A stretch of DNA of 37,719 nt from an uncultured Anaerolineales bacterium (lineage in GTDB: Bacteria > Chloroflexota > Anaerolineae > Anaerolineales > UBA11858), in assembly GCA_964544065.1 (NCBI GenBank), contig CAZJBA010000004.1, positions 1 to 37,719 on the forward strand, given 5' to 3'. Positions 6,728-35,556 of the stretch are shown here, in pieces; the stretch's first letter is position 1; each line of letters opens with the position of its first letter. Below the pieces are notes generated by a model. That model saw nothing but the letters and a program-made list of their open reading frames with translations, had not been told where the DNA came from and searched no databases. A program made the position numbers and the translations under genes.

Positions 6728-6852
6728 AGTGGGAGGGGGAAATTCTTATAAAATGATAAGATTTCTCTTACGTCTTTCATATACTGATTTTTTATACTGT
6801 AAGCAAATGGATGAAGTCAAAATAGTATCCAAAATTCAAAGGAGGTTTGTAT

Positions 6853-7290: not shown

Positions 7291-7302
7291 ACGGAGGTAA
7301 CG

Positions 7303-7710
7303 ATGGCTACTGAAACAAAAGAAATGGAAGTCAAAAAACAAGAAGCGTCCATGGAAGAGAGTGAACGCACTCGCGAATGCCAATGCTTCGTTCCTCGCGC
7401 CGACATTTACGAAACCGAAGATGATATTGTTGTGCTCTTGGATATGCCCGGTATCGAGAAAGACGAAATTGATGTCAGCTTGGAAAAAAACACTCTGACG
7501 GTCAACGGATACGTCAAGATCGAGGCACCCGAAGGGTATTCCCTGGCCCTGAATGAATATCGCCTGGGCGATTATGAGCGCAGTTTCCGCATCTCCAATC
7601 AGATCGACCGCGAGGGAATCGAAGCTGAGTACAATGACGGCGTTCTACGCCTGACTCTGCCGAAAGCGGAAGAGGCCAAAGAACGCAAAATCCCGGTGAA
7701 AGCCGAGTAA
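7303..7710 (+). CDS. Hsp20/alpha-crystallin small heat-shock protein (copy 2)
   Basis: PRADIYETEDDIVVLLDMPGI, FERSFRISN, DGVLRLTLPK. GGAGG Shine-Dalgarno upstream. Confidence 0.9.
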   Translation: MATETKEMEVKKQEASMEESERTRECQCFVPRADIYETEDDIVVLLDMPGIEKDEIDVSLEKNTLTVNGYVKIEAPEGYSLALNEYRLGDYERSFRISNQIDREGIEAEYNDGVLRLTLPKAEEAKERKIPVKAE

Positions 7711-7750
7711 ATTTTCGAGTTCGAACAAAACGTTGAAGGAGGCGAATTAG

Positions 7751-8266
7751 ATGGCTATCACAGATTACCTGCCTTGGAAACGCGATAAGGACGAGCTTGA
7801 AATTCGACGAGAGCCAGAAGAACAAGAATCGGTCTTGGCAATACAAGAAGAGATCGACGATCTGTTTGATGACTTTTTCAATCGTCCCTTTGGCCTGATG
7901 CGCCATCCATCAAGGGGCTTCGAAACGTTGAGCAAATTCTCGCCCAGCGTTGATGTCAGCGAAACGGCCAAACAGATCAACATCAAGGCCGAGCTTCCCG
8001 GCATGGAAGCCGACGATATCGACCTGGAAGTGCGCGACGAGATGGTCTTGATCCGAGGCGAGAAGAAGTCTGAACGAGAAGAAAAAGACGAGCAATTCTA
8101 TCGCCTTGAACGAAGTTATGGCTCTTTCCACCGCAGTATTCCGTTGCCCGCCGAGATCGACGTAGACAAAGCCAAAGCGAATTTCAAGAACGGCGTCTTG
8201 TCCATCAAGTTGCCGAAGGTGAAATCTTCGCAACCAAGGCGCAAAATCGATGTCAAATCCGGATAA
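7751..8266 (+). CDS. Hsp20/alpha-crystallin small heat-shock protein (copy 3, longer N-terminal arm)
   Basis: PSVDVSETAKQINIKAELPGM, FHRSIPLP, NGVLSIKLPK. GAAGGAGG Shine-Dalgarno upstream. Confidence 0.9.
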   Translation: MAITDYLPWKRDKDELEIRREPEEQESVLAIQEEIDDLFDDFFNRPFGLMRHPSRGFETLSKFSPSVDVSETAKQINIKAELPGMEADDIDLEVRDEMVLIRGEKKSEREEKDEQFYRLERSYGSFHRSIPLPAEIDVDKAKANFKNGVLSIKLPKVKSSQPRRKIDVKSG

Positions 8267-19157: not shown

Positions 19158-19505
19158 CTCAACCCATCATCTAGATTGGTTCAGTTTTCTCCGTTGACCC
19201 GACATTCCTGCCTATACTGTGCCAACCACGTAAGCGGTGATGTAACCTATCAGGCGTTCTCTCTTGTCGTTCTCGCGTAAAGAGGCTACTGTCTTACCTG
19301 GAGCAGCGAATGGCCCTGCTACCCAGTTCTTCTTGGCAAACACCAGCCGCGATCATGTGTAAGGACCAACACATGGGGGGTATCCGATTCGCGCCGGCAA
19401 ATCCCATCGTTGCTCCAAGAACGGATCCATGCGCTCAATCTGTGCGATTGGGCGTGCTTTCACCCATCTCCCCACCCCACTCTTTCACGGCAAATCTGGA
19501 GTAAC

Positions 19506-22500
19506 ATGAACGCAAACCACGCTGCAAAAACAAAATCACATACATCCACCCCCGTTGGAGCTGTCATGGTTGTCGGCGGCGGCATCGCCGGGATGCAGGC
19601 CTCGCTCGACCTGGCAGAACAGGGCTTCAAAGTCTACATGGTCGAAAAAGAGTCAGCCATCGGGGGAAAAATGGCACAACTGGATAAGACCTTTCCCACC
19701 AACGATTGCGCCATGTGTACCATCTCGCCAAAATTGGTCGAAACAGGGAGGCATCCGAACATCGATATTTTGACCAACAGTGAGGTGGTCGATATAACCG
19801 GTCAGGCGGGCAATTTTCGCGCCCAAGTGAACCAGCAACCCCGCTACGTTGACCTGGAAAAATGCGTGGCCTGCGGCGACTGCCTCGAGGTCTGCCCCGT
19901 AGAGGTGATCGACACCTTCAACGAAGGCTTGGTGGACCAACATGCCATCTACCAACACTACCCGCAAGCCGTCCCCAATGCCTTTGCGATCCAAAAACGC
20001 GGCATCGCCCCGTGCCGAGACGCCTGTCCGGCCAGTCAACGCGCCCAAGGGTATATCGCTCTGATTCGTGAAGGTCGTTGGGATGAAGCCTTACGGGTCA
20101 TCAAAATGGATAACCCCTTCCCCGGCATTTGCGGACGCATCTGCAATCATCGCTGCGAGGATGCCTGTAACCGGGGCGAAGTCGACGAAGCGATCAATAT
20201 CCGCGCCCTCAAGCGGTTCGTCACCGATAAAGTTTACCAAAACCCAAGAGAACCGGTTGAGCCGGTCGAGATCAAATACCCCGACAAACGCGTGGCCATC
20301 ATCGGGGCGGGACCGTGCGGACTGACCACGGCCCAAGACATCATTCGGGAAGGATACCCCGTCACCGTGTTCGAGGCCATGCCTGTTGCCGGTGGTATGC
20401 TGCGCCTGGGCGTGCCCGAATATCGCTTGCCCAACGAAATCATCGAACGTGAGGTCAACGACATCATCGACTTAGGGGTGGATTTACGCCTCAACCACCA
20501 AGTCGACGATCTCGATGAAATCTTCCAGGAAGGCTTCGAATCCGTGCTCATCGCGGTGGGGGCGCATGAGGGCATCCGTCTACCGATCCCTGGCGCCAAT
20601 CTTGATGGCGTCTTGATCAACACTCATTTCTTGAAAGACGTCCGCCTGGGCAATTATGAAGATGGGAACCGTGACGCCCCGCCTTTGGGCGAGCGAGTGC
20701 TGGTATTGGGGGGTGGCAACGTGGCCATCGACTGCGCTCGCAGCGCCGTCCGGTTGGGGCGTGAAGTGCACCTGGCCTGCCTGGAGGGCCGCGACGAAAT
20801 GCCCGCCCACGAGTGGGAGATCCAAGCAGCCAAAGAAGAGGGCGTCCACCTGCATCCAGGCCGCACCTTCGAGCGCATTCTCAGCAACCACGAAGACCAT
20901 GTTCAGGGCGTAGAATGCTCTCAGGTGGCCTCCTTCCATTTCGACGAGAGCGGCAACCTGCATCTGGAAAAAGAACCCGACTCAACCCATGTGCTCGATT
21001 GCGACACAGTGATCTTCTCGGTGGGGCAGCGGGCGGGTTTAGCTTTCATCCCTGACGACTCCGGGGTAGGATTGACCGACAAGCAAACCATTGCCATCAA
21101 TCCGAACACGTTTGCAACCAGTCGACCGGGCGTATTTGCCGCCGGAGACAGCGTCTCAGGAACGGCCTTCGTCATCGAGGCAGTCGCCAACGGCCATAAG
21201 GCGGCCCAATCGATCTTGCGTTATTTGAAAGGCCAACCCCTGGAGCCAGAGCCCGAACCCGAGCTCCCGGTCGTGAATCTGACTCAACAAGAGATTGACA
21301 ACCGCATCGAGCGAGGCGAGATCGAGCCGCAACCGCGCGTGCCCTTGCCGGAGCTTCCCGTTGATCAACGGGTGACCAACTTTGCTGAGGTGGAGGGTGG
21401 CTACGATGATGAAAGCGCCCAAGCCGAAGCTGCCCGCTGTTTGTCTTGCGGCATTTGCTCCGAGTGCTGGTCATGCGTGTTCGAGTGCGGCCGCGACGCG
21501 ATCATCCACACCGACACCGCAAAGCGGCATTCCCTCAACGTCGGAGCGGTTCTATTGGCGCCCGGCTACCAGATTTACAACGCCCATCTTTCCAGGGAAT
21601 TTGGGCTGGGCCGCTACCCCAACGTGATCACATCGCTTCAATATGAGCGTATGCTCTCGGCCAGCGGGCCAACCGGCGGGCACGCCCGGCGCCCATCCGA
21701 CCAAAAGAGCCCCAAACGAATCGCCTTCTTGCAGTGTGTCGGCAGCCGCGACCAGAGCCACGATTATTGCTCCTCGGTGTGCTGCATGTACGCGGCCAAA
21801 GAAGCGATCATGACCATCGAACACGCCAGAGCCGAGGCGCGTGATGGCAACGGCGACGGCGACGTTCAGTGCCAAGTTTTCTTCATGGACACACGCGCCT
21901 ACAGCAAAGGTTACGAGGAATACTATCATCGCGCCGAGGAAAAATACGGCGTCGAATACACCCGCTGCCGTTTGAGCGAAGTCAAAGAAGCGCCCGACTC
22001 GAATAATTTGATCGTGCGTTATGCAGCACCCTACGAAGGTCGAGATGAAATCCTCGAGAAAGAATTCGACCTGGTGGTTTTATCTGTTGGGATGGAAATT
22101 TCCGACTCGGTCAAAACGCTAGGGCAACAATTGGGGGTAGAACTCGACTCCTACGGCTTTTGCCACACCACCCTGTTTGACCCTCTCCAGACCAGCCGAC
22201 CAGGCATTTACGCGGCCGGCCCCTTCCGCGAACCAAAAGATATTCCCGAAACCGTCATGGAGGCCAGTGGAGCAGCCGCCAATGCGGCTCAATTATTGGC
22301 CCCCTCAAGACACACGCTGGCCGTGCAGCAAGAATATCCCCCAGAGCAAGATGTATCGGGACAAGAAGCCCGCATCGGTGTATTTGTGTGCCACTGCGGC
22401 AGCAACATCGGCGGCTACCTGGATGTCCCCAATGTGGCCGAATATGCCGCGTCCTTTCCCGGTGTGGTTCACGCAGAAGACAACCTGTATACCTGCTCGC

Positions 22501-24188
22501 AAGACACGATCGCGCACATCATCGAGCAAGTCCAGGAGCAGAACTTGAATCGGGTCGTGGTGGCCTCCTGCACGCCGATCACTCATGAACCCCTGTTCCA
22601 AGACGCCATCCGCCAAGCGGGTTTGAATCCCCACCTCTTCGAGATGGCCAACATCCGCAATCAATGTTCCTGGGTCCATTCAGACGAGTGGGACACAGCC
22701 ACCCAAAAAGCCAAATCGCTGGTGCGGATGAGCATCGCCCGTTCGGCGGAACTTGAATCACTGGAAATCTCGGAAGTGGAAGTCGAGCATGCCGCCCTGA
22801 TCATCGGCGGGGGCGCGGCCGGGATGGCCGCAGCGCTCAACCTGGCCAACCAGGGCTTCCCCGTCCACTTGGTCGAACGTGAAAACGAACTCGGCGGCAA
22901 CCTGCGGAAATTGCGCTATTTTGTCGATGAAAAAATTGTGCGCAAAGGCAACGGCGAGGGGTCTAGCTCGCAAACGCCTCGCCAGTATCTCGCTGCGACG
23001 GTTGAAAAAGTCAAGCAGCACCCCTTGATCACCACCCACTTGAACACGGAACTCGTCGACACGGACGGCTTCAAGGGCAACTTCACTTCCAAGCTTGACC
23101 AACAAGGGATAATTCACCAAATCCAACATGGCGTCATCATCGTCGCGACGGGCGGTGAAGAGTACAAAGGCAGCGAATATGGTTATGGCGACCATTCCCG
23201 CATCGTGACACAGTTGGAATTCGAGACCTTGCTGGCATCGCAAGAGGCCTATCAAGACCAGGCGCCAGCATCCACGCTGGCCGACTGTGTGCCCAACAAC
23301 GTCGTCATGATCCTGTGCGTTGGCCCGGCCGAAAAATATTGCAGCCGCATCTGCTGCACCACCGCGCTCAAAAACGCGCTCAAGCTCAAGGAACTAAACC
23401 CCGACGCCGAGATCACAATTCTTTATCACGACATTCGCACCTACGGATTCAAGGAACGCGTATATACGGAGGCGCGCCGCGCCGGGGTGCGATTCATCCA
23501 CTACAAGTTTGACAAAAAACCAAAAGTTGATGTCATGCCCACGCGGCGGGATCAGTCCTCCTTGATCACCGTAGATGTGTGGGAGCCGGTTCTGAAGCGG
23601 GAGATTCGCTTGAACCCCGACCTTCTGGTTCTCTCCACGCCGGTTGTTCCCGCCGATGGAACCCGAGAACTGGCGAGTCAGCTCAAGCTGTCCACCGACA
23701 TGGACGGCTTCTTCCTGGAAGCCCATGTCAAGCTGCGCCCGGTGGACTTCTCCGCTGATGGCGTCTTCATGGCAGGGATGGCCCACTATCCCAAATTCCT
23801 GGATGAGACCATTGCCCAGGCACAGGCCGCCGCTTCGCGAGCATCCCGGGTTCTGGCCCAAGAAACGATGATGACCAACGCCCGCGTCGCCCACGTTGAC
23901 CCAGAAAAATGTGTCGGCTGCCTGACCTGTGTGCGGCTCTGCCCCTATGACGTCCCCAAAGTGACGCTAGAGCACACCGGCGTTGGCGAAATCGGTGGAG
24001 CGGCCTACATTGAGCCGGCTGTCTGCCACGGCTGTGGCTCCTGCGCTTCGGAGTGCCCGGCCCAAGCCATCCAGTTGTTGCATTACAAAGACATACAAAC
24101 GCTACGCAAAGTTGATGCTTTGTTCACTCTCCCCACAACCAAAGAAAAAGAACCGGTTCCAACAAGCACCGGCAAAGAGACCAGATAA
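19506..24188 (+). CDS. Giant HdrA-like flavoprotein with an inserted GltD/NfnB-like NAD(P)H oxidoreductase module and a second HdrA-like module (HdrL-type), copy 1
   Basis: About 1560 aa from the ATG at 19506 (GGAG upstream); the track ORF opens earlier at 19410. Motifs in order: GGGIAGMQASLDLA, DKTFPTNDCAMC, CVACGDCLEVCP, the GltD-like block CRDACPASQRAQGYI...PFPGICGRICNHRCEDACNR, IIGAGPCGL, LGGGNVAIDCARSA, VFAAGD, CLSCGICSECWSCVFEC, the HdrA signature FLQCVGSRD..YCSSVCCMYA, VFVCHCGSNIGGY, a second GGGAAGMAAALNLA, YCSRICCT, and terminal CVGCLTCVRLCP / CHGCGSCASECP. Confidence 0.88.
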   Translation: MNANHAAKTKSHTSTPVGAVMVVGGGIAGMQASLDLAEQGFKVYMVEKESAIGGKMAQLDKTFPTNDCAMCTISPKLVETGRHPNIDILTNSEVVDITGQAGNFRAQVNQQPRYVDLEKCVACGDCLEVCPVEVIDTFNEGLVDQHAIYQHYPQAVPNAFAIQKRGIAPCRDACPASQRAQGYIALIREGRWDEALRVIKMDNPFPGICGRICNHRCEDACNRGEVDEAINIRALKRFVTDKVYQNPREPVEPVEIKYPDKRVAIIGAGPCGLTTAQDIIREGYPVTVFEAMPVAGGMLRLGVPEYRLPNEIIEREVNDIIDLGVDLRLNHQVDDLDEIFQEGFESVLIAVGAHEGIRLPIPGANLDGVLINTHFLKDVRLGNYEDGNRDAPPLGERVLVLGGGNVAIDCARSAVRLGREVHLACLEGRDEMPAHEWEIQAAKEEGVHLHPGRTFERILSNHEDHVQGVECSQVASFHFDESGNLHLEKEPDSTHVLDCDTVIFSVGQRAGLAFIPDDSGVGLTDKQTIAINPNTFATSRPGVFAAGDSVSGTAFVIEAVANGHKAAQSILRYLKGQPLEPEPEPELPVVNLTQQEIDNRIERGEIEPQPRVPLPELPVDQRVTNFAEVEGGYDDESAQAEAARCLSCGICSECWSCVFECGRDAIIHTDTAKRHSLNVGAVLLAPGYQIYNAHLSREFGLGRYPNVITSLQYERMLSASGPTGGHARRPSDQKSPKRIAFLQCVGSRDQSHDYCSSVCCMYAAKEAIMTIEHARAEARDGNGDGDVQCQVFFMDTRAYSKGYEEYYHRAEEKYGVEYTRCRLSEVKEAPDSNNLIVRYAAPYEGRDEILEKEFDLVVLSVGMEISDSVKTLGQQLGVELDSYGFCHTTLFDPLQTSRPGIYAAGPFREPKDIPETVMEASGAAANAAQLLAPSRHTLAVQQEYPPEQDVSGQEARIGVFVCHCGSNIGGYLDVPNVAEYAASFPGVVHAEDNLYTCSQDTIAHIIEQVQEQNLNRVVVASCTPITHEPLFQDAIRQAGLNPHLFEMANIRNQCSWVHSDEWDTATQKAKSLVRMSIARSAELESLEISEVEVEHAALIIGGGAAGMAAALNLANQGFPVHLVERENELGGNLRKLRYFVDEKIVRKGNGEGSSSQTPRQYLAATVEKVKQHPLITTHLNTELVDTDGFKGNFTSKLDQQGIIHQIQHGVIIVATGGEEYKGSEYGYGDHSRIVTQLEFETLLASQEAYQDQAPASTLADCVPNNVVMILCVGPAEKYCSRICCTTALKNALKLKELNPDAEITILYHDIRTYGFKERVYTEARRAGVRFIHYKFDKKPKVDVMPTRRDQSSLITVDVWEPVLKREIRLNPDLLVLSTPVVPADGTRELASQLKLSTDMDGFFLEAHVKLRPVDFSADGVFMAGMAHYPKFLDETIAQAQAAASRASRVLAQETMMTNARVAHVDPEKCVGCLTCVRLCPYDVPKVTLEHTGVGEIGGAAYIEPAVCHGCGSCASECPAQAIQLLHYKDIQTLRKVDALFTLPTTKEKEPVPTSTGKETR

Positions 24189-24219: not shown

Positions 24220-24669
24220 ATGACCAAGGACTTTAGCCCCGAAATCGTCGCTTTTTGCTGCCACTATTGCGCTTATGCAGCCGCTGACCTGGCCGGATCT
24301 ATGCGCTTAGAATATCCCCCCGCCATCAAGGTAATCAAATTGCCTTGCTCCGGCAAGGTCGACCCGCTCTATATCCTGCGGGCATTCGAGGACGGCGCCG
24401 ACGGCGTTCTCACGGCCGGTTGACTGCCGGGAGACTGTCATTACCTGGAAGGTAATCTACAAGCCCGCAGAAGAGTTGAATACGCTAGAAAGCTGATCGA
24501 AGAAATCGGCCTGGATGGCCGCCGACTTCAAATGATCAATGTATCTGCAGCCATGGGAGGCCAATTCGCTTTCTCCGTTGCAGAGATGACGGCAGAGATC
24601 AAACGGATGGGGCCCAGCCCTTTCCGAAAAAATGGAAAGGAACAACTTGGAGGAGGGCAGCATGAATGA
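24220..24669 (+). CDS. mvhD: MvhD/FlpD-family [2Fe-2S] electron-transfer subunit, predicted selenoprotein (in-frame TGA at 24421-24423 read as Sec, residue 68)
   Basis: N-terminus IVAFCCHYCAYAAADLAG...LPCSGKVD...FEDGADGVLTAG-TGA-LPGDCHYLEGN. The same frame stays open for 81 more codons to the TGA at 24667-24669. The TGA replaces the first Cys of the family motif G-C-x-x-G-D-C-H-Y-x-x-G-N. Confidence 0.8.
24421..24467 (+). promoter_or_regulatory. Candidate bacterial SECIS element downstream of the mvhD1 UGA
   Basis: Hairpin ATTACC (24440-24445), loop TGGAA, GGTAAT (24451-24456), starting 19 nt after the T of TGA. A possible lower stem is CGGG (24428-24431) / CCCG (24464-24467). The same hairpin occurs at the same offset in mvhD2. 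Confidence 0.55.
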
Positions 24670-25057
24670 GCAACCTTATATCTTGATTGTGGATGATGAT
24701 CCTGACATCCTGGATGGTATTTGCACCATCTTAGAAACGCAGGATTATCGTTTAGAGACAGCGCGGGATGGGGTCCAATGCCTCGAATTGCTCGGCGAAG
24801 AGAAACCCGATCTACTAATCTTGGACCTGCTGATGCCGCGTATGGATGGCTGGGGCGTGATCCGCGAAATGCGCAGCCAAGCCTGCTTTTCCGATGTTCC
24901 TGTTATGGTGCTGACCACTGTAGTGGAAGATGCCAGCCGACGCCGCTACGAACTGGAGACAGGCATGGCCATGGATGTGCAAGAATACATCGAAAAGCCA
25001 GCCCGTCCCGATAACCTACTGCGACACGTAGAGAATCTACTGCAATGGAAAAAGTAA
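24662..25057 (+). CDS. Stand-alone CheY-like response regulator receiver protein
   Basis: YILIVDDDPD, DLLILDLLMPRMDG, YIEKP, no output domain. The ATG at 24662 follows GGAGGAGGG and overlaps the mvhD1 stop (ATGAATGA). Confidence 0.85.
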   Translation: MNEQPYILIVDDDPDILDGICTILETQDYRLETARDGVQCLELLGEEKPDLLILDLLMPRMDGWGVIREMRSQACFSDVPVMVLTTVVEDASRRRYELETGMAMDVQEYIEKPARPDNLLRHVENLLQWKK

Positions 25058-26268
25058 CTGATACGCTTTCCGTCATCGCCGACCGCCTGGGTCGATCCGA
25101 AGTGTTCAACACACTTCCGGAAGATGATCTGCTGGAAATCGCGAAACTCTGCACCGAAAAGAGCTACCCAGACGACCGAACCATCTTCCAAGAAGGCAAG
25201 CCGTCAGAAAATTTCTTAGTTGTGGAACGCGGCAAGTTGGCGATCGAAAAGAAAATCCAGATCGGCAGACACTCCACACGGCGCAATGCAACGATTGCGT
25301 ATGTCGGCCCCAACCAAGTAGCCGGTTTTTCAACCATCGCTTCTCCCCACACGCATTCCGCCTCTGTTATGACCGTTGAGCCAACCCGCGTTCTTGAAAT
25401 CAACGGTCAACAATTACGCCAGTATTTATCGTCCCATCCGAAAGCAGGATATCAGGTCTCAATCCGCCTGCTCAACCTTGTAAGTGGCCGCTACCGCAGC
25501 GCCACGAATACGCTAACCTACTTCCTCTCGATCGTCTCGCACGAATTACGCTCACCGCTAGCAGCGATTGAAAACTATCTGCGCACAATTCTGGGCGGGT
25601 TTGCTGGCGACCTGAATGCCAAGCAAGAGCGGATGATGAAACGCTGCATCCTGAGAGTCACCGATCTTTCAGCTTTGATCAGCAATGTCGTCGATTTGGC
25701 CCGCATGCGCCCGGAGCAAATCCAGGCTGACTTCGAGTGGTTTGACCCGGCGGAAGTGGGCATGGAATCAATCGATGACGCTCGCTTGGCCGCCTCGGAA
25801 AAGGGCGTCGAACTCAACATTGAGCCGCCCCCCAACTTCGAGCCCATCATTGGCGCACGGCGACGCATGCGCCAGGTTTTCACCAACCTGTTGACTAACG
25901 CGATCAAGTTCGCCCCCGAAGAATCAACCGTGACATTCCGGGCCTGGTACGAGCCAGAAGAATTAATTTTCGAAGTCGAAGACCAGGGCCCTGGCATCCC
26001 TCCCAACGAATTGCCCCACATTTTCAAGGATTTCTTTCGGGGCAGCAATGTCAAAGGGTCAGCGGGGACGGGCCTAGGCCTCTCGATTACCAAGAAAATT
26101 ATGGATGCCCATGAAGGTGACATCGTCGTCAAGAACGTCTACGATGACGAAGGCGAGATTAGCGGCACCCGCTTCACGGTTCATATTCCGCGCGATCTGA
26201 AAACCCCTGAGATGCGTAGACAAGCCTGGAGAACAGAGGGCGAAGCCGAAATGGGAGCTAACTTTTAG
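25045..26268 (+). CDS. Soluble histidine kinase with an N-terminal Crp/cNMP-binding-like sensor domain
   Basis: The N-terminal ~140 aa resemble a cyclic-nucleotide-binding beta-barrel (FQEGKPSENFLVVERGKLAI). Followed by H-box SIVSHELRSPL and an HATPase_c domain (DQGPGI, GTGLGLSI). No hydrophobic helices. Overlaps the receiver gene by 13 nt. Confidence 0.82.
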   Translation: MEKVTDTLSVIADRLGRSEVFNTLPEDDLLEIAKLCTEKSYPDDRTIFQEGKPSENFLVVERGKLAIEKKIQIGRHSTRRNATIAYVGPNQVAGFSTIASPHTHSASVMTVEPTRVLEINGQQLRQYLSSHPKAGYQVSIRLLNLVSGRYRSATNTLTYFLSIVSHELRSPLAAIENYLRTILGGFAGDLNAKQERMMKRCILRVTDLSALISNVVDLARMRPEQIQADFEWFDPAEVGMESIDDARLAASEKGVELNIEPPPNFEPIIGARRRMRQVFTNLLTNAIKFAPEESTVTFRAWYEPEELIFEVEDQGPGIPPNELPHIFKDFFRGSNVKGSAGTGLGLSITKKIMDAHEGDIVVKNVYDDEGEISGTRFTVHIPRDLKTPEMRRQAWRTEGEAEMGANF

Positions 26269-26287: not shown

Positions 26288-29200
26288 ATGAAGAGCAAAG
26301 TATCCTCCCCACGCTCCATTCATACAGACAAGTCTACTACCCCGGTTGGCGCTGCCATGGTGGTAGGGGGTGGCATCGCGGGGATGCAAGCCTCCCTAGA
26401 CCTGGCCGATCAAGGCTTCAAAGTCTATCTGGTCGAGAAACAATCCGCCATTGGCGGCAAAATGGCCCAACTCGATAAAACCTTCCCCACCAACGATTGC
26501 GCCATGTGCACGATTTCGCCAAAGTTGGTCGAAACCGGGCGCCATCCCAATATCGAGATCCTCACCAATACCGAAGTGCTGGAGGTTTCCGGAGACAAGG
26601 GCAACTTCACGGTACGACTTCGCCAAGAACCACGCTATATCGAAGTCGATCAATGTGTGGCGTGTAATGACTGTGCCGAAGTCTGCCCTGTTATCATCCC
26701 GGATCCCTTCAACGAAGCGCTCAATTCTCGCCATGCAGCCTACAAACAATACCCACAGGCCGTCCCCAATGCCTATGCTATCCAAAAGGCCGGTGTAGCC
26801 CCTTGCCGGGATGGCTGTCCCGCCGGTCAACGCGCCCAGGGCTATATCGCCCTGATTCGGGAAGGACGTTGGGAGGACGCTCTGCGCGTCATCAAAATGG
26901 ACAATCCCTTCCCGGGCATCTGCGGTCGCATCTGCAATCATCGCTGCGAGGAGGCCTGTAACCGCGCTAAGCTGGACGAACCGATCAATATTCGCGCTCT
27001 CAAGCGTTTTGTGACGGACAAGGTATACGAAAAGCCGCGCCAACCCCTCGAGCCTGTCGAGATCAACCACCCCGACAAGCGTGTGGCCATCATCGGAGCG
27101 GGCCCATGTGGGCTAACCGCGGCTCAAGACATCATTCGAAATGGTTATCCTGTTACCGTCTTTGAAGCTTTGCCTGTCGCCGGTGGGATGCTCCGTGTCG
27201 GTGTGCCCGAATATCGCCTCCCTTCTGAAATCGTAGAGCGAGAAGTTCGGGATATCGTCGACCTGGGTGTAGACTTACAACTCAATCACCGAGTAGACGA
27301 TTTTGATGAAATCTTCGACCAAGGCTATACCGCCGTGCTCATCGCCGTTGGCGCGCATGAAGGCGTTCGGCCGCCCATCCCCGGGGCCAATCAAGATGGC
27401 GTGTTGGTCAGTACAACGTTCTTGCGCGATGTCCGTATCAGCGATCCGCCAGCCTTAGGGGAGCGCGTGGTCGTCGTAGGCGCCGGCGATGTAGCCATGG
27501 ATGTGGCTCGCACCGCGGTCAGGTTGGGTTCCGAAGTTCACATCTTCTATCGGCGGCGACGAGAAGACGCGACGGCTGACGAACAAGAAATTCAACACGC
27601 CCAAGAAGAAGGCGTAGTGTTCCATTTCCAGACCAACATCAAAGAAATCATTGGTGATAGCGATGGGCTGCTCAAAGGGATAACGTGCTTCAAAACAGAA
27701 CCCGGGACTCCGGACAAATCTGGCCGCCCCAAGCCGGTTCCCGTTCCTGAATCAGAAACCTTCTTTCCCTGTGAAAATGTCATCTTTGCCGTCGGCCAAC
27801 GGGCCGGTCTCGCCTTCATACCCGACGACGCTGGTGTCGGCATCACGGACCAACAAACCATCGCCATCAACCCAAACACATTCGCAGCTACTCGTGAGGG
27901 TGTCTTCGCAGCCGGAGATAGCATCTCTGGAACTTCGTTTGTGATCGATGCTGTTGCCAGCGGCCACACCGCGGCCCAGTCCATGATCCGTTACTTGCAA
28001 GCAAAGCATCTCGAACCGCCTCGAAAACCAAACCTGCCGGTGGTTGAACTTTCGCAAAAGGAGATCGACGAAAAGTTGGCGCGAGGAGAGGTCAAACGCC
28101 AGCCGCGCGTCCCCATCCCTGAACTGGCGGCGGATCAACGCGTCAACAGCTTCGAGGAAGTCTCCCGCGGCTACGATGAAGAAAGCGCCCGTGCAGAGGC
28201 AGCCCGCTGTTTAGCTTGTGGCATCTGTTCCGAATGCATGTCCTGCGTCTTTGAGTGTGGGCGAGACGCCATTGATCACGACATGGTGGCCAAAGAGAAG
28301 GAAGTAAATGCAGGAGCCATCATCTTGGCCCCCGGTTATCAGACCTATCAGGCCGAATTATCAGAAGAATTCGGCTTCGGTCGCTATCCCAACGTGGTCA
28401 CATCAATGCAGTTTGAGCGACTGCTTTCGGCCTCAGGTCCAACCATGGGAACGATCCAACGCCCATCCGACGATGAGACTCCCCGGCGAATCGCCTTCTT
28501 ACAGTGTGTCGGCTCCCGCGACCAGGAGCATGACTATTGCTCCTCGGTTTGCTGCATGTACGCCACCAAAGAATCTGTGGTGGCCAAGGAGCATGATCCC
28601 GACCTCGACATCCACGTCTTCTTGATGGACATGCGCGCTTTTTCAAAAGGGTATTTACGTTATTTCCAGCGAGCCCAAGATGACTATGGGATTCACTATC
28701 ACCATTGTCGCATTTCCGATCTACACGAAACATCCGACGAACATGATCTAATTCTCCGGTACACGCCAGAAGAAAACCCCAACCAACTTGTTGCCCAGGA
28801 ATTTGATCTGGTCGTCCTTTCGGTGGGCATGGAAATGTCTGAATCCGTCCAGACTCTGGGCCGCCAATTGGGGGTCAGCTTGGATGAATACGGATTCTGT
28901 TCCACGCCACAATTCAACCCGGTAGAGAGCAGTCGGGCGGGCATCTACGCGGTTGGTCCGTTCCGGGAACCCAAAGATATCCCCGAAGCGGTCATGGAAG
29001 CGAGTGGTGCCTCCGGGGCTGTCGGGGCTTTGCTGGGGTCGAGCCGTCATTCTCTCACCACGATACCCGAATTCCCACCCGAGCGCGACATCAGCGAGGA
29101 AGAGCCTCGCATCGGCGTATTTGTTTGTCACTGCGGCTCAAACATCGGCGGCTATTTAGACGTTCCCAAAGTGGCCGATTATGCCGCCAGCCTGCCTCAC

Positions 29201-30853
29201 GTGGAACACGCTGAAGAGAATCTCTACACCTGTTCACAAGATAGCATCAAACACATCACGGAGACGGTCAAAGAGGAAAACCTTAATCGAGTCGTGGTCG
29301 CAAGTTGCACGCCCCTGACCCACGCGCCTCTCTTTCAGGACAGCATCAGAGCAGCAGGCTTAAACCCTTATCTGTTTGAAATGGCCAACATCCGCAATCA
29401 GTGTTCGTGGGTACACTCACACGATTGGGATACGGCCACCGAAAAAGCTCAAGAGTTAGTTCACATGGCTGTCGCCCGTTCTGCGCTGCTAAACGCACAA
29501 CCCACCATCGATGTGCCAGTCGAAAACGAAGCCCTCGTGGTCGGAGGCGGAGTCGCCGGGATGACCGCGGCGCTGACCCTGGCAGAAAACGGCTTCCCCG
29601 TCCACCTGGTCGAGAAAGAGGCGCAACTAGGGGGGCATCTCCGTGACATCCACACCTTACACGATAACCGAGATGCACAACAAGTCTTACGAAAGATGTT
29701 CGAGCAGGTAGAAAGCCAGACTGACATCCACGTCCATTTAGAGAGCACTGTGCAAGATGTAAAAGGCTTCCGAGGCAATTTCAGCAGCACAATAGAAAGC
29801 GCTGACGGACAAACCATCCAGGTCTCTCACGGAGCAACCATCTTGGCTACCGGCGCGCAAGAATACCGCGGCGAAGAATACGGTTACGGCCAATCCGACC
29901 AGATCATAACCCAGCAAGAACTTGAGGCCATCCTTGGGGGGCAGAAAGCCTACCCGACTCAAGAACCACCGGACACCGTCGTCATGATTCAGTGCATTGG
30001 GCCAGCCGAACAGTATTGCAGCCGAATTTGTTGCACCGTAGCCTTAAAGAACGCCCTGAAGCTCAAAGAACAACATCCCGACACCAAAGTCATCATTTTA
30101 TATAAAGATATGCGCGTATACGGATTTAAAGAACGTCTCTACAGCCAAGCTCGCCAAAAAGGAATTCTATTTTTACGCTATAATAAAACCAAGCCCAAGG
30201 TTGAAAGCATCCCTGCTTCAACGACCTCAACCGATAAATCCGCTTCCTTACGCATCCAAGCCTGGGACCCTTCTCTTGAAAGGACTCTTGAACTTCCAAC
30301 AGATTTACTCGTTCTTTCCATGCCGGTAGTGCCTAACCCCGACACCAAGGAGTTGGCCAACTGCTTTAAAGTTTCCACGGATGCTGATGGATTCTTCATG
30401 GAAGCCCATGTCAAGTTGCGTCCCGTCGATTTTGCCACCGAGGGCGTTTTCATGGCCGGGATGGCCCACTACCCAAAGCTGGTTGATGAAGCCATGATTC
30501 AGGCCCAGGCAGCGGCTTCTCGTGCCGCGCGGCTGCTCAGCAAGAAAACCTCAAAAGTCGGGGGGCGCGTGGCTGTGGTGGAACCAGAGCTGTGTACCGG
30601 CTGCTTAACCTGTGTGCGAGCATGCCCCTTCGACGTGCCCTTGATCAAGGCCGACTTGGTGGGCATCGGAAACATTCAAGGCGCAGCCTATATTGAAGCG
30701 GCTATCTGCCAGGGTTGTGGCTCGTGCGCGGCCGCATGTCCAGCCCAGGCCATCCAGTTGATGCACTACACCGATGCGCAAATGGCAGCAAAAGTCAGCA
30801 TCCTGGCGAAACCAAAGATACCAGCCATGAAATCAGAAGAAGTTGGAGCCTAG
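26288..30853 (+). CDS. Giant HdrA-like / GltD-NfnB-like / HdrA-like fusion flavoprotein (HdrL-type), copy 2
   Basis: 1521 aa, collinear with copy 1, all motif blocks conserved (GGGIAGMQASLDLA, CVACNDCAEVCP, PFPGICGRICNHRCEEACNR, IIGAGPCGL, CLACGICSECMSCVFEC, FLQCVGSRD..YCSSVCCMYA, VFVCHCGSNIGGY, GGGVAGMTAALTLA, YCSRICCT, CTGCLTCVRACP, CQGCGSCAAACP). Confidence 0.88.
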   Translation: MKSKVSSPRSIHTDKSTTPVGAAMVVGGGIAGMQASLDLADQGFKVYLVEKQSAIGGKMAQLDKTFPTNDCAMCTISPKLVETGRHPNIEILTNTEVLEVSGDKGNFTVRLRQEPRYIEVDQCVACNDCAEVCPVIIPDPFNEALNSRHAAYKQYPQAVPNAYAIQKAGVAPCRDGCPAGQRAQGYIALIREGRWEDALRVIKMDNPFPGICGRICNHRCEEACNRAKLDEPINIRALKRFVTDKVYEKPRQPLEPVEINHPDKRVAIIGAGPCGLTAAQDIIRNGYPVTVFEALPVAGGMLRVGVPEYRLPSEIVEREVRDIVDLGVDLQLNHRVDDFDEIFDQGYTAVLIAVGAHEGVRPPIPGANQDGVLVSTTFLRDVRISDPPALGERVVVVGAGDVAMDVARTAVRLGSEVHIFYRRRREDATADEQEIQHAQEEGVVFHFQTNIKEIIGDSDGLLKGITCFKTEPGTPDKSGRPKPVPVPESETFFPCENVIFAVGQRAGLAFIPDDAGVGITDQQTIAINPNTFAATREGVFAAGDSISGTSFVIDAVASGHTAAQSMIRYLQAKHLEPPRKPNLPVVELSQKEIDEKLARGEVKRQPRVPIPELAADQRVNSFEEVSRGYDEESARAEAARCLACGICSECMSCVFECGRDAIDHDMVAKEKEVNAGAIILAPGYQTYQAELSEEFGFGRYPNVVTSMQFERLLSASGPTMGTIQRPSDDETPRRIAFLQCVGSRDQEHDYCSSVCCMYATKESVVAKEHDPDLDIHVFLMDMRAFSKGYLRYFQRAQDDYGIHYHHCRISDLHETSDEHDLILRYTPEENPNQLVAQEFDLVVLSVGMEMSESVQTLGRQLGVSLDEYGFCSTPQFNPVESSRAGIYAVGPFREPKDIPEAVMEASGASGAVGALLGSSRHSLTTIPEFPPERDISEEEPRIGVFVCHCGSNIGGYLDVPKVADYAASLPHVEHAEENLYTCSQDSIKHITETVKEENLNRVVVASCTPLTHAPLFQDSIRAAGLNPYLFEMANIRNQCSWVHSHDWDTATEKAQELVHMAVARSALLNAQPTIDVPVENEALVVGGGVAGMTAALTLAENGFPVHLVEKEAQLGGHLRDIHTLHDNRDAQQVLRKMFEQVESQTDIHVHLESTVQDVKGFRGNFSSTIESADGQTIQVSHGATILATGAQEYRGEEYGYGQSDQIITQQELEAILGGQKAYPTQEPPDTVVMIQCIGPAEQYCSRICCTVALKNALKLKEQHPDTKVIILYKDMRVYGFKERLYSQARQKGILFLRYNKTKPKVESIPASTTSTDKSASLRIQAWDPSLERTLELPTDLLVLSMPVVPNPDTKELANCFKVSTDADGFFMEAHVKLRPVDFATEGVFMAGMAHYPKLVDEAMIQAQAAASRAARLLSKKTSKVGGRVAVVEPELCTGCLTCVRACPFDVPLIKADLVGIGNIQGAAYIEAAICQGCGSCAAACPAQAIQLMHYTDAQMAAKVSILAKPKIPAMKSEEVGA

Positions 30854-30856: not shown

Positions 30857-31270
30857 ATGTCCAAGAAGAAACTCCGCATCGTCGCTTATTGTTGTGAGCA
30901 TTGCGCTTACGCCGCGGCCGATCTGGCCGGAGGCTTGCGCATGCAATACCCGCCGGAGACCAGAATTGTGCAAATACCCTGCACCGGCAGACTGGATACG
31001 CTCATGGTCTTGCAAGCGTTCGAAGATGGCGTTGACGGCGTCATGGTGGCAGGTTGACTGCCCGGAGACTGCCATTACCTGGATGGTAATGTGAAAGCGA
31101 AACAACGAGTTGAAAGGATTCAGCAATTGCTCGCTCAAATTGGTTTAGCGCCAGAGCGAGTGGAGATGTTCAATCTTTCCTCAGCGATGGCAGGTAAATT
31201 CGTCGCTGTAACAGAAGAAATGACAGAAACAATTACCCGATTGGGGCCCAACCCCCTCAAAGATTCTTGA
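30857..31270 (+). CDS. mvhD: MvhD/FlpD-family subunit, copy 2, predicted selenoprotein (in-frame TGA at 31055-31057 read as Sec, residue 67)
   Basis: IVAYCCEHCAYAAADLAG...IPCTGRLD...FEDGVDGVMVAG-TGA-LPGDCHYLDGN. The same frame continues for 70 codons to the TGA at 31268-31270. Confidence 0.8.
31055..31091 (+). promoter_or_regulatory. Candidate bacterial SECIS element downstream of the mvhD2 UGA
   Basis: Hairpin CATTACC (31073-31079), loop TGGAT, GGTAATG (31085-31091). The ATTACC arm starts 19 nt after the T of TGA, as in copy 1. Confidence 0.55.
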
Positions 31271-31294: not shown

Positions 31295-31984
31295 ATGATC
31301 ATTGCAGAAAGAAAGGATTTAGATGAAATCAGATCACTCATCGGGGAGGATGCCGAAAAGGTGCTCGTGGTTGGATGCGGCACCTGTGTGACGGTGTGCT
31401 TTGCCGGCGGCTCGCGCGAGGCGCAAATCACAGCCAGTTCGCTGCGCATGGCAACCAAACTCGATGATGAAGAGGGCAATGGCCTGGATGTCACCGACGT
31501 GACGGTCCAGCGCCAGTGCGAATGGGAATACCTGGACGAAATCGAAGACCAGGTCGCGGAAGCCGATGTCGTGCTGTCGCTGGGGTGTGGTATCGGTGTC
31601 CAAGCCATTGCCGAATATTTTCCCGAATGCTGGGTTGTCCCCGGACTGAACACCACCTTCTTGGGGCTGCCCTCCGAGCAAGGCATCTGGGAAGAGCGTT
31701 GCGCCGCCTGTGGAGACTGTGTACTGGGGATCACCGGCGGGATTTGTCCGATCGCCCGCTGCTCCAAGTCCCTGCTCAACGGCCCTTGCGGTGGATCAGA
31801 AGACGGCCATTGTGAAATTGACCCTGAGGTCCCCTGCGCCTGGCAATTAATATACGACCGCATGAGCAGCAAAGGGCGACTTGACATGCTGATCACGTTA
31901 CAAGCGCCGAAAAACTGGAGTACGTCTCGTGATGGCGGCCCGCGCAAAATTGTGCGGGAAGACCTATTCCTAGAAGAAGCATAG
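31295..31984 (+). CDS. metV: MetV-like small subunit of methylene-THF reductase (MTHFR C-terminal-type Cys-rich domain)
   Basis: 229 aa. VVGCGTCVTVC, then CAACGDCVLGITGGICPIARCSKSLLNGPCGGSEDGHCEIDPEVPCAW. Sits directly upstream of metF, as in acetogens. GGAGG Shine-Dalgarno. Confidence 0.82.
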   Translation: MIIAERKDLDEIRSLIGEDAEKVLVVGCGTCVTVCFAGGSREAQITASSLRMATKLDDEEGNGLDVTDVTVQRQCEWEYLDEIEDQVAEADVVLSLGCGIGVQAIAEYFPECWVVPGLNTTFLGLPSEQGIWEERCAACGDCVLGITGGICPIARCSKSLLNGPCGGSEDGHCEIDPEVPCAWQLIYDRMSSKGRLDMLITLQAPKNWSTSRDGGPRKIVREDLFLEEA

Positions 31985-32003
31985 CCCCAAAGTGGAGGAA
32001 AAC

Positions 32004-33035
32004 ATGACAGCAATCGAAAACAATACCAACGGCTACCTCGTCGGTTCCAATCTGGAAAAAATGCTTGAAGCTGGACACTTTGCCGTAACCGGAGAATTAG
32101 GCCCACCTCAGAGCGCCGATGGAGAAGTCATCCGTGAAAAAGCCACCCTTCTGAAAGGGTTCGTCGATGGCATCAACATCACCGACAATCAAACCGCGAT
32201 CGTGCGGATGTCCAGCATTGGAGCAGGCACCATCGTCGTGGAGGAGGGCCTCGAACCGATCATCCAGATGACCTGCCGGGACCGCAATCGGCTGGCGATC
32301 CAAAGCGATCTATTGGGCGCTTACGCGCTCGGCATGCGCAACCTGCTTTGCCTGAGCGGCGACCATCAACATTTCGGCAACCATCCCACCTCGAAGAACG
32401 TCTTCGATATCGATTCGCTCCAAATGGTGAAGATGGTGGCCGATATGCGCGATGATTGCATCTTTCAATGCGGGGACACCTTTAAGGGCATCGAGCCGCG
32501 CTTCTTTGTCGGCGCCGCTTCCGCCCCCTTTGCTGACCCGATCGACTTTCGTCCTTATCGGTTAGCCAAAAAAGTCAAAGCCGGGGCCGATTTCATTCAG
32601 ACTCAATTGGTCTACGATGTGGAGGCTTTCGAAGAATTCATGCAGAAAGTGCGCGAACTTGGGCTTCACGAGCAAACCTACATCATGGCCGGGGTCGGCC
32701 CGCTCAAGAGCGCTGGAATGGCCCGGTACATGAAAAATAACGTCCCCGGTATCCTTGTGCCTGACGAGATCATCGAACGGATGAAAGCAGTTGACAAACC
32801 TTGGGCGGGCAAGAGCAAAGATGAAATGACCAAAGACGATAAACGCGCTCGCTCGAAAGCCCGCAAAGAGGAAGGCATTCAAGTCTGCATCGACCTAATC
32901 AATCAATTAAGAGAGATTGAAGGCGTCGCCGGTGTCCATATCATGGCGATCGAATGGGAAGAAGCAGTCAAGCCTATCGTAGAAGGCGCGGGCTTGCACC
33001 CGCGACCAACACTAAAAGAGAAAGTCGCGGCATAG
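32004..33035 (+). CDS. metF: Methylenetetrahydrofolate reductase catalytic subunit (acetogen-type MetF)
   Basis: TIM-barrel MTHFR motifs (VTGELGPP, INITDNQTA, QMTCRDRN, NLLCLSGDH, FFVGAA, ADFIQTQLVYD). The ATG at 32004 follows GGAGGA; the track GTG at 31992 lies within the Shine-Dalgarno. Confidence 0.88.
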   Translation: MTAIENNTNGYLVGSNLEKMLEAGHFAVTGELGPPQSADGEVIREKATLLKGFVDGINITDNQTAIVRMSSIGAGTIVVEEGLEPIIQMTCRDRNRLAIQSDLLGAYALGMRNLLCLSGDHQHFGNHPTSKNVFDIDSLQMVKMVADMRDDCIFQCGDTFKGIEPRFFVGAASAPFADPIDFRPYRLAKKVKAGADFIQTQLVYDVEAFEEFMQKVRELGLHEQTYIMAGVGPLKSAGMARYMKNNVPGILVPDEIIERMKAVDKPWAGKSKDEMTKDDKRARSKARKEEGIQVCIDLINQLREIEGVAGVHIMAIEWEEAVKPIVEGAGLHPRPTLKEKVAA

Positions 33036-33091: not shown

Positions 33092-34522
33092 ATGGACGAA
33101 CAACAAACAAGCACGAAATCCATCAAAATCAAAGGAGACCTGGCAAAACGGGTAAAAGAAGAAATCGATCAAAATGTCTATTTGTGCTACCAGTGTGTCA
33201 AGTGCACCAGTGGATGTCCCGTGGCTGATTTCTTCGATTGGCAACCTAACCAAGTTATGCGCGCCCTTCAATTAGGGCAAGAGGATATCGCTCTGGAGGC
33301 CAAAACCCCTTGGCTATGCGCAGCTTGCCAAACCTGTACCACTCGCTGCCCGCAAGGGTTGGATATCAACGCCATCATGGAATTTCTGACCCGTGAAGCG
33401 GTCGAACAGGGCATAAAACCCCCCATCCCTGAAGTTAACGCCTTCAATCGCGCCTTCATGCGCGAGGTCAACATCTGGGGTCGTAGCTATGAACCGGGTT
33501 TGATGGCCGAGATGGGAATTCAAGATCCTCTCGCCATGGTGGAAGACCTTGACCTGTACTTCAACATGCTCAAGAAAGGCAAGGTCAGCTTCTTCCCCAA
33601 ACCGGCGCGCCTACCCAACTCTCGCAAGATCAAACCAATCGAAGGCGCCGAGGAGGCCATCGCTTACTACCCTGGCTGCTCGCTCGAATCAACCGCGACG
33701 GAATTTCATCATTCGACCGAAGCCGTTTGCGAAGCCATTGGCCTGAAATTGATTGAACCGCCCGGATGGGTTTGCTGTGGAAGTTCCGCTGCCCATAAAA
33801 TCGCTCCGGAAGCAGCTTTGCGGCTCCCGATGGAGAACCTTGCCTACTTCGAGCGCAGCGGGTTCAAGGAAGTCACCATGCCTTGCGCGGCTTGCTTCAA
33901 CCGCCACAAAGCAGCTCAATTCGAGATCCGCGAGTACGAAGACCATAAAGCTGCCATGGATGAAGCACTTGGATACGATTACCAAGACAGCGTCCACGTC
34001 AGCACATTGGCTGAGGCGATCCACAACCACATTGGGCCCGAGCGCGTGGCCGAGAAAGTCCAAAACCAGCTTGAAAACTTGAATGTGGTCAGCTATTACG
34101 GCTGTCTATTGACCCGACCTCCCGAGGTCACGGAAGCAGCCCACCACGAAAATCCCACCGACATGGACGAACTCATGGCCGCTCTGGGCGCTCAGGTTCA
34201 CGATTGGTCTTACAAGACGACCTGTTGCGGGGCTGCCCACTCCCTAACTCGACCTGACATTGTATTAGACCTGAGCGGCAACATCATCAGACACGCCAGG
34301 GAAGCTGGCGCTGATGTCATCGCCGTCGCCTGCCCGCTTTGCCACATGAATCTGGATGCCCGCCAAATCCAAATGGACCTGGAAGACCCTATGCCCATTC
34401 TCTACTTCACCCAGTTGATGGCCCTGGCATTAGGACTTCCCAAGAAAGCTGCCTTGCTACACAAGAACATCATTGATCCACGTCCACTTCTGCGAAGAAA
34501 GGAAATCATCTCTCCTGACTAA
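33092..34522 (+). CDS. HdrC-HdrB fusion protein (two [4Fe-4S] ferredoxin motifs plus two CCG domains)
   Basis: HdrC part: CYQCVKCTSGCP and CAACQTCTTRCP. HdrB part: two Cys-rich CCG repeats (YYPGC...WVCCGSS...CAAC and YYGC...TCCGAA...CPLC). The ATG at 33092 is preferred over the track start at 32954, which overlaps metF. Confidence 0.85.
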   Translation: MDEQQTSTKSIKIKGDLAKRVKEEIDQNVYLCYQCVKCTSGCPVADFFDWQPNQVMRALQLGQEDIALEAKTPWLCAACQTCTTRCPQGLDINAIMEFLTREAVEQGIKPPIPEVNAFNRAFMREVNIWGRSYEPGLMAEMGIQDPLAMVEDLDLYFNMLKKGKVSFFPKPARLPNSRKIKPIEGAEEAIAYYPGCSLESTATEFHHSTEAVCEAIGLKLIEPPGWVCCGSSAAHKIAPEAALRLPMENLAYFERSGFKEVTMPCAACFNRHKAAQFEIREYEDHKAAMDEALGYDYQDSVHVSTLAEAIHNHIGPERVAEKVQNQLENLNVVSYYGCLLTRPPEVTEAAHHENPTDMDELMAALGAQVHDWSYKTTCCGAAHSLTRPDIVLDLSGNIIRHAREAGADVIAVACPLCHMNLDARQIQMDLEDPMPILYFTQLMALALGLPKKAALLHKNIIDPRPLLRRKEIISPD

Positions 34523-34548: not shown

Positions 34549-35109
34549 ATGATGACCGCCGCTCCTCCATCTCCAGAAAAGATTGACCCTGTAACCTTTC
34601 TCGACACCACACTTGAGAAAACATGGCACGCTCTTTGCAACCACTTCGATGTCATCGCCAAAATGCCTGATAGTCAAATTCTCTTTTGTAAAGTCGATGC
34701 AAGCATGCCGCATCAAGCTGCCGAAAGAGTGTTTGTCAACATGATCACAGAATCGATTGAGCATGTAGGCCGATTCTCGCCCTGGTACACGCAACCGGCG
34801 CGTAAGTTTGGCATCATCTCAATTTGTGACGAACAAACCAATTGCCGCAAATGGATCTTAGCACCGGAGTCTCTACGTCAGTGGAAGGACGAATTAAAAA
34901 ACCTTCGTTTGGCCATTGAAAAGAATTCTGGCCTGATTCAAGCCAGCCTACTCCTGGATCAACTCAGCATGAAAGAGCTTAGCAAGGGTTCCCAAATAAC
35001 GGCCAAGTGTGAATGCTGCCCGCCAAAGCTAATTCAAATCAAAAAAGAAATTTTGGATCAATCGGCGATCACATGTGACGCCTGCCAATGCTCGTTTATC
35101 CCGATATAA
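34549..35109 (+). CDS. Hypothetical Cys-rich protein, last gene of the hdr/met operon
   Basis: 186 aa. AAGGAG lies 6 nt upstream of the ATG. I recognise no family. C-terminal cluster CECCPPK-x20-CDACQC. Visibly more AT-rich than its neighbours. Confidence 0.6.
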   Translation: MMTAAPPSPEKIDPVTFLDTTLEKTWHALCNHFDVIAKMPDSQILFCKVDASMPHQAAERVFVNMITESIEHVGRFSPWYTQPARKFGIISICDEQTNCRKWILAPESLRQWKDELKNLRLAIEKNSGLIQASLLLDQLSMKELSKGSQITAKCECCPPKLIQIKKEILDQSAITCDACQCSFIPI

Positions 35110-35323
35110 GCAATTAACGGATGTTGGTTAGATAGTAAGATACTTAAGACCAAAATGCTCTAGGCGGCGTCCCCGCCGCCGAGGACGGCGGCTAGAGCTA
35201 ACGTTCAAGGGGGCGTCATGCTTGCCGCGCTTCCCCTGGCGGGACGCAGAGCGTGCGTATCCGCTGGGCAAGGCATGCTACCCAAACCGCTGATGCTTTC
35301 CCGCCCGAAGTAGTTCTTCAAAT

Positions 35324-35358
35324 ACCGCCCTGGTGTTTTTCGGGGCGGTTTTCGCTTT
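35324..35358 (+). terminator. Rho-independent terminator candidate closing the hdr/met operon
   Basis: ACCGCCC (35324-35330), 12-nt loop, GGGCGGT (35343-35349), followed by TTTTCGCTTT. Confidence 0.55.
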
Positions 35359-35443
35359 GATAAAGGCGCCCCTTTGGCGGACTCATATACTTTTCTTACT
35401 TTTTTCCTACATATTTTGTGTAGAATTACATAGGAAGATTGCA

Positions 35444-35484
35444 TTGACACCTTTCTACCGACTGATATACTACAAATATATCAG
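35444..35484 (+). promoter_or_regulatory. Sigma70-type promoter with an overlapping palindromic operator candidate upstream of the metV-metF fusion gene
   Basis: TTGACA (35444-35449), 16-nt spacer, TATACT (35466-35471). Inverted repeat CTGATATA (35462-35469)-N7-TATATCAG (35477-35484) covers the -10 box. Confidence 0.5.
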
Positions 35485-35556
35485 TGAAAATATAACAAGA
35501 TCAAACTCACACAATCATTCCAGCCCACCAACAGGCAATAAAGGAGCAAAGCATAG

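Follow-up and report, generated by a model that had tools for sequence, protein, structure and literature searches.

Known and predicted selenocysteine-containing MvhD proteins and their gene clusters

MvhD is a [2Fe-2S] adaptor protein through which electrons reach, one at a time, the bifurcating FAD of an HdrA-type flavoprotein. Its family PF02662 (FrhD/MvhD/VhuD) has been listed in a review among the experimentally verified selenoprotein families, with two selenocysteine (Sec) residues and a CxxU motif. VhuD, the delta subunit of the F420-non-reducing hydrogenase of Methanococcus, acts as [2Fe-2S] adaptor to HdrA, and its solved chain (9sfi_K) contains two non-standard residues (X), one at the CxxU motif and the other in the alignment column of the TGA codon described below. 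Among bacteria, Desulfobacterium autotrophicum HRM2 has four Sec-containing MvhD proteins (MvhD1/2/3/5), encoded next to HdrA or a large HdrL fusion in a genome with a complete sel system (PMC2702500). BamF, a subunit of the class II benzoyl-CoA reductase of Geobacter metallireducens, is an MvhD-like adaptor with Sec (bioRxiv 10.64898/2026.04.10.717634). The Sec/Cys exchange invoked in the first-pass annotation of the present locus is documented in the literature, for VhuD versus VhcD and for Sec-MvhD beside HdrA in sulfate reducers. For marine Anaerolineae, a Moorella-type Hdr-MvhD-MetVF methylene-tetrahydrofolate (methylene-THF) reductase cluster with a fused hdrCB, a two-component system close by and a further metVF has been described, and the passages on these organisms also report Sec-containing formate dehydrogenases.

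The locus analyzed here (the window, a stretch of 37,719 nucleotides) contains the following cluster:

19503-24188, + strand: hdrL-type gene 1, an HdrA-like / GltD(NfnB)-like / HdrA-like fusion of 1561 aa (Pfam; NCBIfam HdrA2/HdrA/GltD-type)
24220-24669, + strand: mvhD copy 1, a predicted full-length selenoprotein gene of 149 codons (translation, PF02662 and PDB matches)
24662-25057, + strand: response regulator (Pfam Response_reg), its start overlapping the mvhD stop; same gene order in loci L244 and L245
25045-26268, + strand: sensor histidine kinase (translation)
26288-30853, + strand: hdrL-type gene 2, 1521 aa (Pfam)
30857-31270, + strand: mvhD copy 2, recoded in the same way, 137 codons (PF02662 1-123/123, E 5e-49, 165.9 bits)
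31295-31984, + strand: metV, zinc-ribbon subunit of methylene-THF reductase (Pfam PF12225, E 8e-37)
31992-33035, + strand: metF, methylene-THF reductase (Pfam PF02219, E 6e-40)
33092-34522, + strand: fused hdrC-hdrB-like gene (Pfam CCG twice and Fer4 dicluster; NCBIfam HdrB and HdrC), with an open reading frame from 32954 and its likely start at the ATG at 33092

All components of the Moorella-type Hdr-MvhD-MetVF cluster are present between positions 19503 and 34522, in the order hdrL-mvhD-response regulator-histidine kinase-hdrL-mvhD-metV-metF-hdrCB; the HdrL-type fusion and the fused HdrCB are the differences. Locus L244 is fully syntenic with this arrangement. Each mvhD directly follows an HdrA-like and GltD/NfnB-like fusion of 1521-1561 residues (HdrL-type), and the products of hdrL-type genes 1 and 2 are the presumed partners of MvhD copies 1 and 2, respectively. 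The response regulator and the histidine kinase are located between the hdrL-mvhD modules not only in the window (24662-26268), but also in L244 (10492-12100) and L245 (787-2438), where the kinase orthologs carry cNMP_binding, HisKA and HATPase_c domains. The conservation of this arrangement in related loci suggests that the cluster has regulators of its own. Further downstream than the separate metV and metF lies one gene for a MetV-MetF fusion (35557-37122, 521 aa), a second methylene-THF reductase. The open reading frame between hdrCB and this fusion (34549-35109, 186 residues) has a Cys-rich C-terminus of the form CECCPP...CDACQC and no Pfam match. The regions 118-2122 and 6847-8266 of the window hold two adjacent response-regulator/HD-domain (HD_5) paralogs and three adjacent genes for HSP20 small heat-shock proteins.

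The window shares with the cluster described for marine Anaerolineae the hdrA-like gene, mvhD, metV, metF, the fused hdrCB, the two-component system and the second metV/metF. In contrast to that cluster as described, the HdrA-like subunit in the window is present twice, each time as a fusion with a GltD/NfnB-like module, and both MvhD proteins are predicted Sec forms, whereas the passages on the marine Anaerolineae name selenocysteine for formate dehydrogenases only and never for MvhD. The Sec-MvhD proteins of D. autotrophicum resemble those predicted for the window in Sec content and neighborhood, being bacterial, encoded directly downstream of HdrA/HdrL and belonging to a Wood-Ljungdahl organism. 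The two differ in that HdrL1 and HdrL3 of D. autotrophicum contain Sec, while the hdrL genes of the window are free of in-frame TGA codons; in that the window cluster is tied to metV/metF and that of D. autotrophicum to dsr or fdh genes; and in lineage, the window being Chloroflexota/Anaerolineae-like. BamF is likewise an MvhD-homologous [2Fe-2S] adaptor with Sec that feeds an HdrA-type bifurcating flavoprotein. However, its Sec19 occupies the N-terminal site, a Cys position near the cluster, whereas the window protein has Cys N-terminally and its predicted Sec within G-U-x-x-G-x-C-H; BamF is also more than 100 residues longer.

VhuD and MvhD copy 1 align over 130 residues within PF02662 (E 5e-38). 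VhuD is archaeal, has its SECIS element in the 3' UTR and carries a second Sec at the N-terminal CxxU; the window hairpins lie inside the coding region, and the window protein has Cys at the N-terminal site. VhuD also goes together with a NiFeSe hydrogenase, while the window encodes no hydrogenase subunits: families of large and small hydrogenase subunits were absent among the window reading frames scanned with Pfam. Against the NCBIfam VhuD model NF045873, copy 1 scored 151 bits at a cut-off of 215. The window protein appears to resemble VhuD in its working, but is no VhuD equivalog.

Two mvhD genes with an in-frame TGA codon

Four short elements within the mvhD genes are central to their reading:

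24421-24423, + strand: in-frame TGA of copy 1, predicted Sec codon, at the first Cys of G-C-L-P-G-D-C-H-Y
24440-24456, + strand: putative SECIS apical hairpin of copy 1, AUUACC-UGGAA-GGUAAU (folds, consensus fold, covariation, Cys control and bSECIS criteria)
31055-31057, + strand: in-frame TGA of copy 2, predicted Sec codon, in the same alignment column as that of copy 1
31074-31090, + strand: putative SECIS hairpin of copy 2, AUUACC-UGGAU-GGUAAU, extended by a C31073-G31091 pair

In copy 1 (24220-24669), the 67 sense codons before the TGA are followed, past it, by another 81, and the frame closes with a second TGA at 24667-24669. Translation bears out the first-pass annotation in the position of the internal TGA, the 81-codon continuation and the resulting length of 149 residues. 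The DNA around the codon reads GCC GGT TGA CTG CCG GGA GAC TGT CAT TAC CTG GAA GGT AAT. Standard ORF calling ends the gene at 24423, as had been anticipated. The proposed overlap of the stop of copy 1 with the start of the response-regulator gene, ATGAATGA, is found at 24662-24669. In copy 2, which is 52% identical to copy 1, the TGA is followed by 70 sense codons.

With Cys in place of U, the readthrough product of copy 1 matches the Pfam profile FlpD (PF02662) from end to end and across the TGA (1-123/123, E 1e-48), with 164.8 bits at a cut-off of 22.3, which places it in the MvhD/FlpD-type family as first annotated. Residues 1-137 match MvhD/VhuD chains in the PDB (E 3.5e-44), and the 81 residues after the TGA are enough for a match to the C-terminal half of the VhuD model of NCBIfam (E 2e-15). 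The conserved Cys set C13/C14, C17, C43, C68 and C73 is complete if position 68, the TGA, is counted; the remaining positions are invariant or nearly so in the homolog alignment. According to the same alignment, both copies have Cys at the N-terminal site and the Sec codon at the downstream site only. The first in-frame start-type codon past the TGA of copy 1 is the ATG at residue 105, and hence the conserved GDCHYLEGN segment cannot arise as a separate peptide. The predicted tryptic peptide of copy 1 that spans the Sec is AFEDGADGVLTAG-U-LPGDCHYLEGNLQAR, with U as residue 68.

The two mvhD TGAs are the only internal stops in the 31 genes of the window. These genes terminate with TAA (19), TAG (8) or TGA (4); TGA is the rarest terminal stop, and two of the four genes that use it are the mvhD genes. 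Both HdrL-associated MvhD proteins of the cluster are predicted Sec forms, and the window is without a Cys-type backup. A scan for further recoded genes, in which the frame had to be open for 50 codons or more before and after a TGA, returned only alternative-frame overlaps of known genes and one stretch, 35132-35632, which looks non-coding.

The TGA column in homologs

In an alignment with 28 database homologs (58-78% identity to copy 1), the column of the TGA is Cys in most sequences, inside the motif G-C-L-x-G-x-C-H-Y-x-x-G-N, in agreement with the assignment of the codon to the first Cys of the family signature and well past what chance could produce. One genome per GTDB species was scanned with a degenerate DNA pattern of the family motif in which this column had to be TGA. 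The scan retrieved TGA-type mvhD genes from these species-representative genomes, at least 121 genes in at least 120 genome loci. All 121 listed matches were mvhD, with a frame open for 46-176 codons past the TGA; homologs that end at the TGA and are followed by a separate downstream gene were looked for and none was found. About half of the matches listed were from Chloroflexota (Anaerolineae and relatives) according to the record titles, and the other listed loci came mainly from Desulfobacterota, Nitrospirota and Acidobacteriota. The best DNA identities to the window among the listed loci were about 70%, and these best matches were all Chloroflexota. The matches listed include genes from Desulfobacterota that share both the TGA and the hairpin. 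Three Acidobacteriota MAGs (L068, + strand with a TGA at 229, L083 and L112) have two in-frame TGAs per mvhD, at the N-terminal C-C-x-x-U and at G-U-x-x-G-x-C-H, which mirrors the two-Sec archaeal VhuD.

The 121 listed matches and the two window copies formed the Sec-type set (n=123). A Cys-type control set of equal size (n=123) was composed of matches to the same pattern with TGY on metagenome contigs and of three TGY matches from genome loci. The same column in the same pattern context is thus occupied by TGA in the one set and by TGC/TGT in the other.

A covarying hairpin downstream of the TGA

The hairpin of copy 1 comprises 17 nt, begins 16 nt past the UGA and is encoded by the codons for His-Tyr-Leu-Glu-Gly-Asn. 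Its consensus, AUU[A/U]CC-UGGAA-GG[U/A]AAU, occurs 16 nt past the UGA in 122 of the 123 Sec-type genes. Codon usage in this segment is nearly uniform, with CAU for His in all 123 genes, AAU for Asn in 122 and CUG for Leu in 119. The codons of the Tyr/Phe and Gly positions are coupled: Tyr-UAC occurs with Gly-GGU (79 genes) and Phe-UUC with Gly-GGA (44 genes), without a single mixed case. This represents a perfect compensatory exchange of A-U to U-A that involves the second position of one codon and the third of the other, and a neighbor-joining tree calls for three or more independent Tyr/Phe switches. In copy 1 the pair concerned is A24443-U24453, for which the natural Phe/GGA variant is the U-A swap.

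Among 50 distinct sequences analyzed with count_structure_pairs, 98% of the cells pair, and the pair 23-33 is AU in 35, UA in 15 and broken in none. Neither the observed pairing nor the covariation was matched by any of 500 shuffles, and slid controls paired in 27-71%. In the Cys-type controls the coupling is absent: His is encoded by CAC (69) or CAU (54), Asn by AAC (68) or AAU (55) and Gly mostly by GGC. The full stem of 6 bp is possible in only 9 of the 123 Cys-type genes versus 122 of the 123 Sec-type genes. Likewise, RNAalifold recovered the hairpin in the Sec set and nothing in the Cys set.

The published bSECIS model describes a loop of 3-9 nt with a G in the first two loop positions, a stem of 4-16 bp, a distance of 16-37 nt between UGA and loop and a minimum free energy (MFE) of at most -7.5 kcal/mol (PMC13188914). 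Both window copies fall within these ranges, with a loop of 3-5 nt (UGGAA/UGGAU, or GGA), a stem of 6-7 bp, a spacing of 22-23 nt and an MFE over 48 nt of -12.2 kcal/mol for copy 1 and -8.6 kcal/mol for copy 2. A search of the TGA-proximal region for a SECIS element, as proposed in the first-pass annotation, yields a covarying hairpin that agrees with the published model. By itself the hairpin is short and AU-rich, with about -5 kcal/mol (-7.3 kcal/mol for the extended hairpin of copy 2 alone), and folds of 60 nt stand out from shuffled sequences by z-scores of no more than about -1.6 to -1.8. A longer SECIS with a lower stem, seen in the MFE fold of copy 1, is kept neither in copy 2 nor in the consensus fold of the 123 genes and was discarded. 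At gathering thresholds, Rfam models found nothing in the window.

The exact hairpin, CATTACCTGGAAGGTAAT, also occurs in the closest orthologs of the Cys-column type, in L244 (10001-10474 and 16655-17113), L245 (286-783), L241 (1226-1657) and L243 (136-555), which have TGC/TGT (or GTG) at the Sec column. These hairpins resemble fossil SECIS elements, remnants of recent switches from Sec to Cys. As close Cys-type orthologs keep an identical hairpin, the hairpin alone is no proof of current Sec decoding. The ortholog in L241 (P0001) is the closest database homolog, with 80% identity, and combines TGC at the Sec column with an intact hairpin. P0001 has Trp (TGG) where nearly all other sequences have the second Cys of the motif, possibly an error given the approximately 3x coverage of the contig. 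A Sec at a shifted site in P0001 was ruled out by the DNA, which reads TGG at the second Cys and TGC at the first.

Alternative readings of the TGA codon

Decoding of the UGA as Trp, Cys or Gly without Sec, either by near-cognate reading or under code table 4 or 25, would also yield a full-length protein. Public protein translations of five close homologs (P0002, P0004, P0007, P0015 and P0019) indeed show W at the TGA column. However, the DNA of P0002 (L242, 396-854) has TGA at the W position, and the W is hence an artefact of gene calling under an alternative translation table. With an internal TGA in only two of the 31 window genes and four genes ending in TGA, the codon is no general sense codon and the code is standard. 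Moreover, the column is a conserved Cys and the Sec site in the solved VhuD, and a code reassignment needs no dedicated covarying hairpin at SECIS spacing. We regard such a readthrough as very unlikely.

A genuine nonsense mutation would leave a pseudogene, with a fragment of 67 residues ending at 24423 and a decaying frame downstream. The standard ORF call stops at exactly this position, and Sec machinery was not seen in the window: selA, selB and selD are absent from it, and ARAGORN detected no tRNA or tRNA-Sec in the window and no tRNA-Sec in the fetched loci either. Against decay stands the presence of the same TGA in the paralog and in at least 121 other genes, in all of which the downstream half is intact and family-conserved. 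The stop is always TGA, as the search pattern required, and is coupled to the covarying hairpin; with the first start-type codon at residue 105, the GDCHYLEGN segment is also not separately translatable. Loss of function is hardly credible on these grounds. A sequencing or assembly error for TGT/TGC in an ordinary Cys-MvhD, only one base away and reminiscent of the close relatives L244 and L245 with TGC/TGT plus the same hairpin, is extremely improbable, as it would need two hits in the same column of paralogs that are only 52% identical and would have to recur in at least 120 other, independently assembled genomes.

With a conserved TGA, an open and conserved downstream frame and a covarying hairpin, mvhD copies 1 and 2 are in all probability intact selenocysteine-encoding genes of an organism that would be capable of Sec decoding. 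Precedents are the Sec-MvhD genes beside HdrA/HdrL in D. autotrophicum and the Sec-containing formate dehydrogenases of marine Anaerolineae that share the hdr-mvhD-metVF cluster. For this organism we infer decoding by SelB and tRNA-Sec. In copy 1, SelB carrying Sec-tRNA(Sec) would bind the 17-nt hairpin (24440-24456) while the ribosome is at the UGA (24421-24423), and Sec would be inserted at the first Cys position of G-C-L-P-G-D-C-H-Y. Translation would then run for 81 codons to give the MvhD of 149 residues. As its partner we would expect the giant HdrA/NfnB-like fusion encoded next to it (HdrL-type), within an HdrL-MvhD-HdrCB-MetVF methylene-tetrahydrofolate reductase cluster of an anaerobe that resembles Chloroflexota.

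Possible role of the predicted selenocysteine and implications

The adjacency of the genes to HdrA-like fusions predicts that copy 1 docks on an HdrA-type subunit, and the solved MvhD homologs predict the binding of a [2Fe-2S] cluster. The Sec probably ligates or neighbors this cluster. That it serves as a direct selenolate ligand is a tentative proposal, somewhat doubtful at present, which derives from VhuD: of the conserved Cys/Sec positions this protein retains only five, with Sec at two, and the N-terminal Sec position has been described as lying close to the cluster without being a ligand.

Both the family and the Sec site were already known, and the window genes add members to the PF02662 selenoproteins; knowledge of Sec recoding or of the working of MvhD is unchanged. 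In annotation, both mvhD genes are at risk of being called as fragments of 66-67 residues or as pseudogenes, or of being given Trp at the Sec position, and the reconstruction of the methylene-THF reductase step of the Wood-Ljungdahl pathway depends here on recognizing both. The comparative data provide a clean SECIS element for the MvhD family, supported by covariation. A 17-nt SECIS that is near-identical over four phyla, together with its fossil copies, would suggest that Sec and Cys were exchanged repeatedly and that the Sec-mvhD module perhaps spread laterally.

According to a recent review, these hydrogenase-family selenoproteins are restricted to sulfate reducers and methanogens. About half of the at least 120 listed Sec-mvhD loci are from Chloroflexota, which contradicts this restriction: Sec-MvhD is common in this phylum as well. 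For the organism of the window, the two genes imply a need for selenium and for a Sec-insertion system. If the Sec is indeed a cluster ligand, methylene-THF reduction by HdrL-MvhD-MetVF and the associated electron bifurcation would be selenium-dependent in a large and little-studied group of Anaerolineae.
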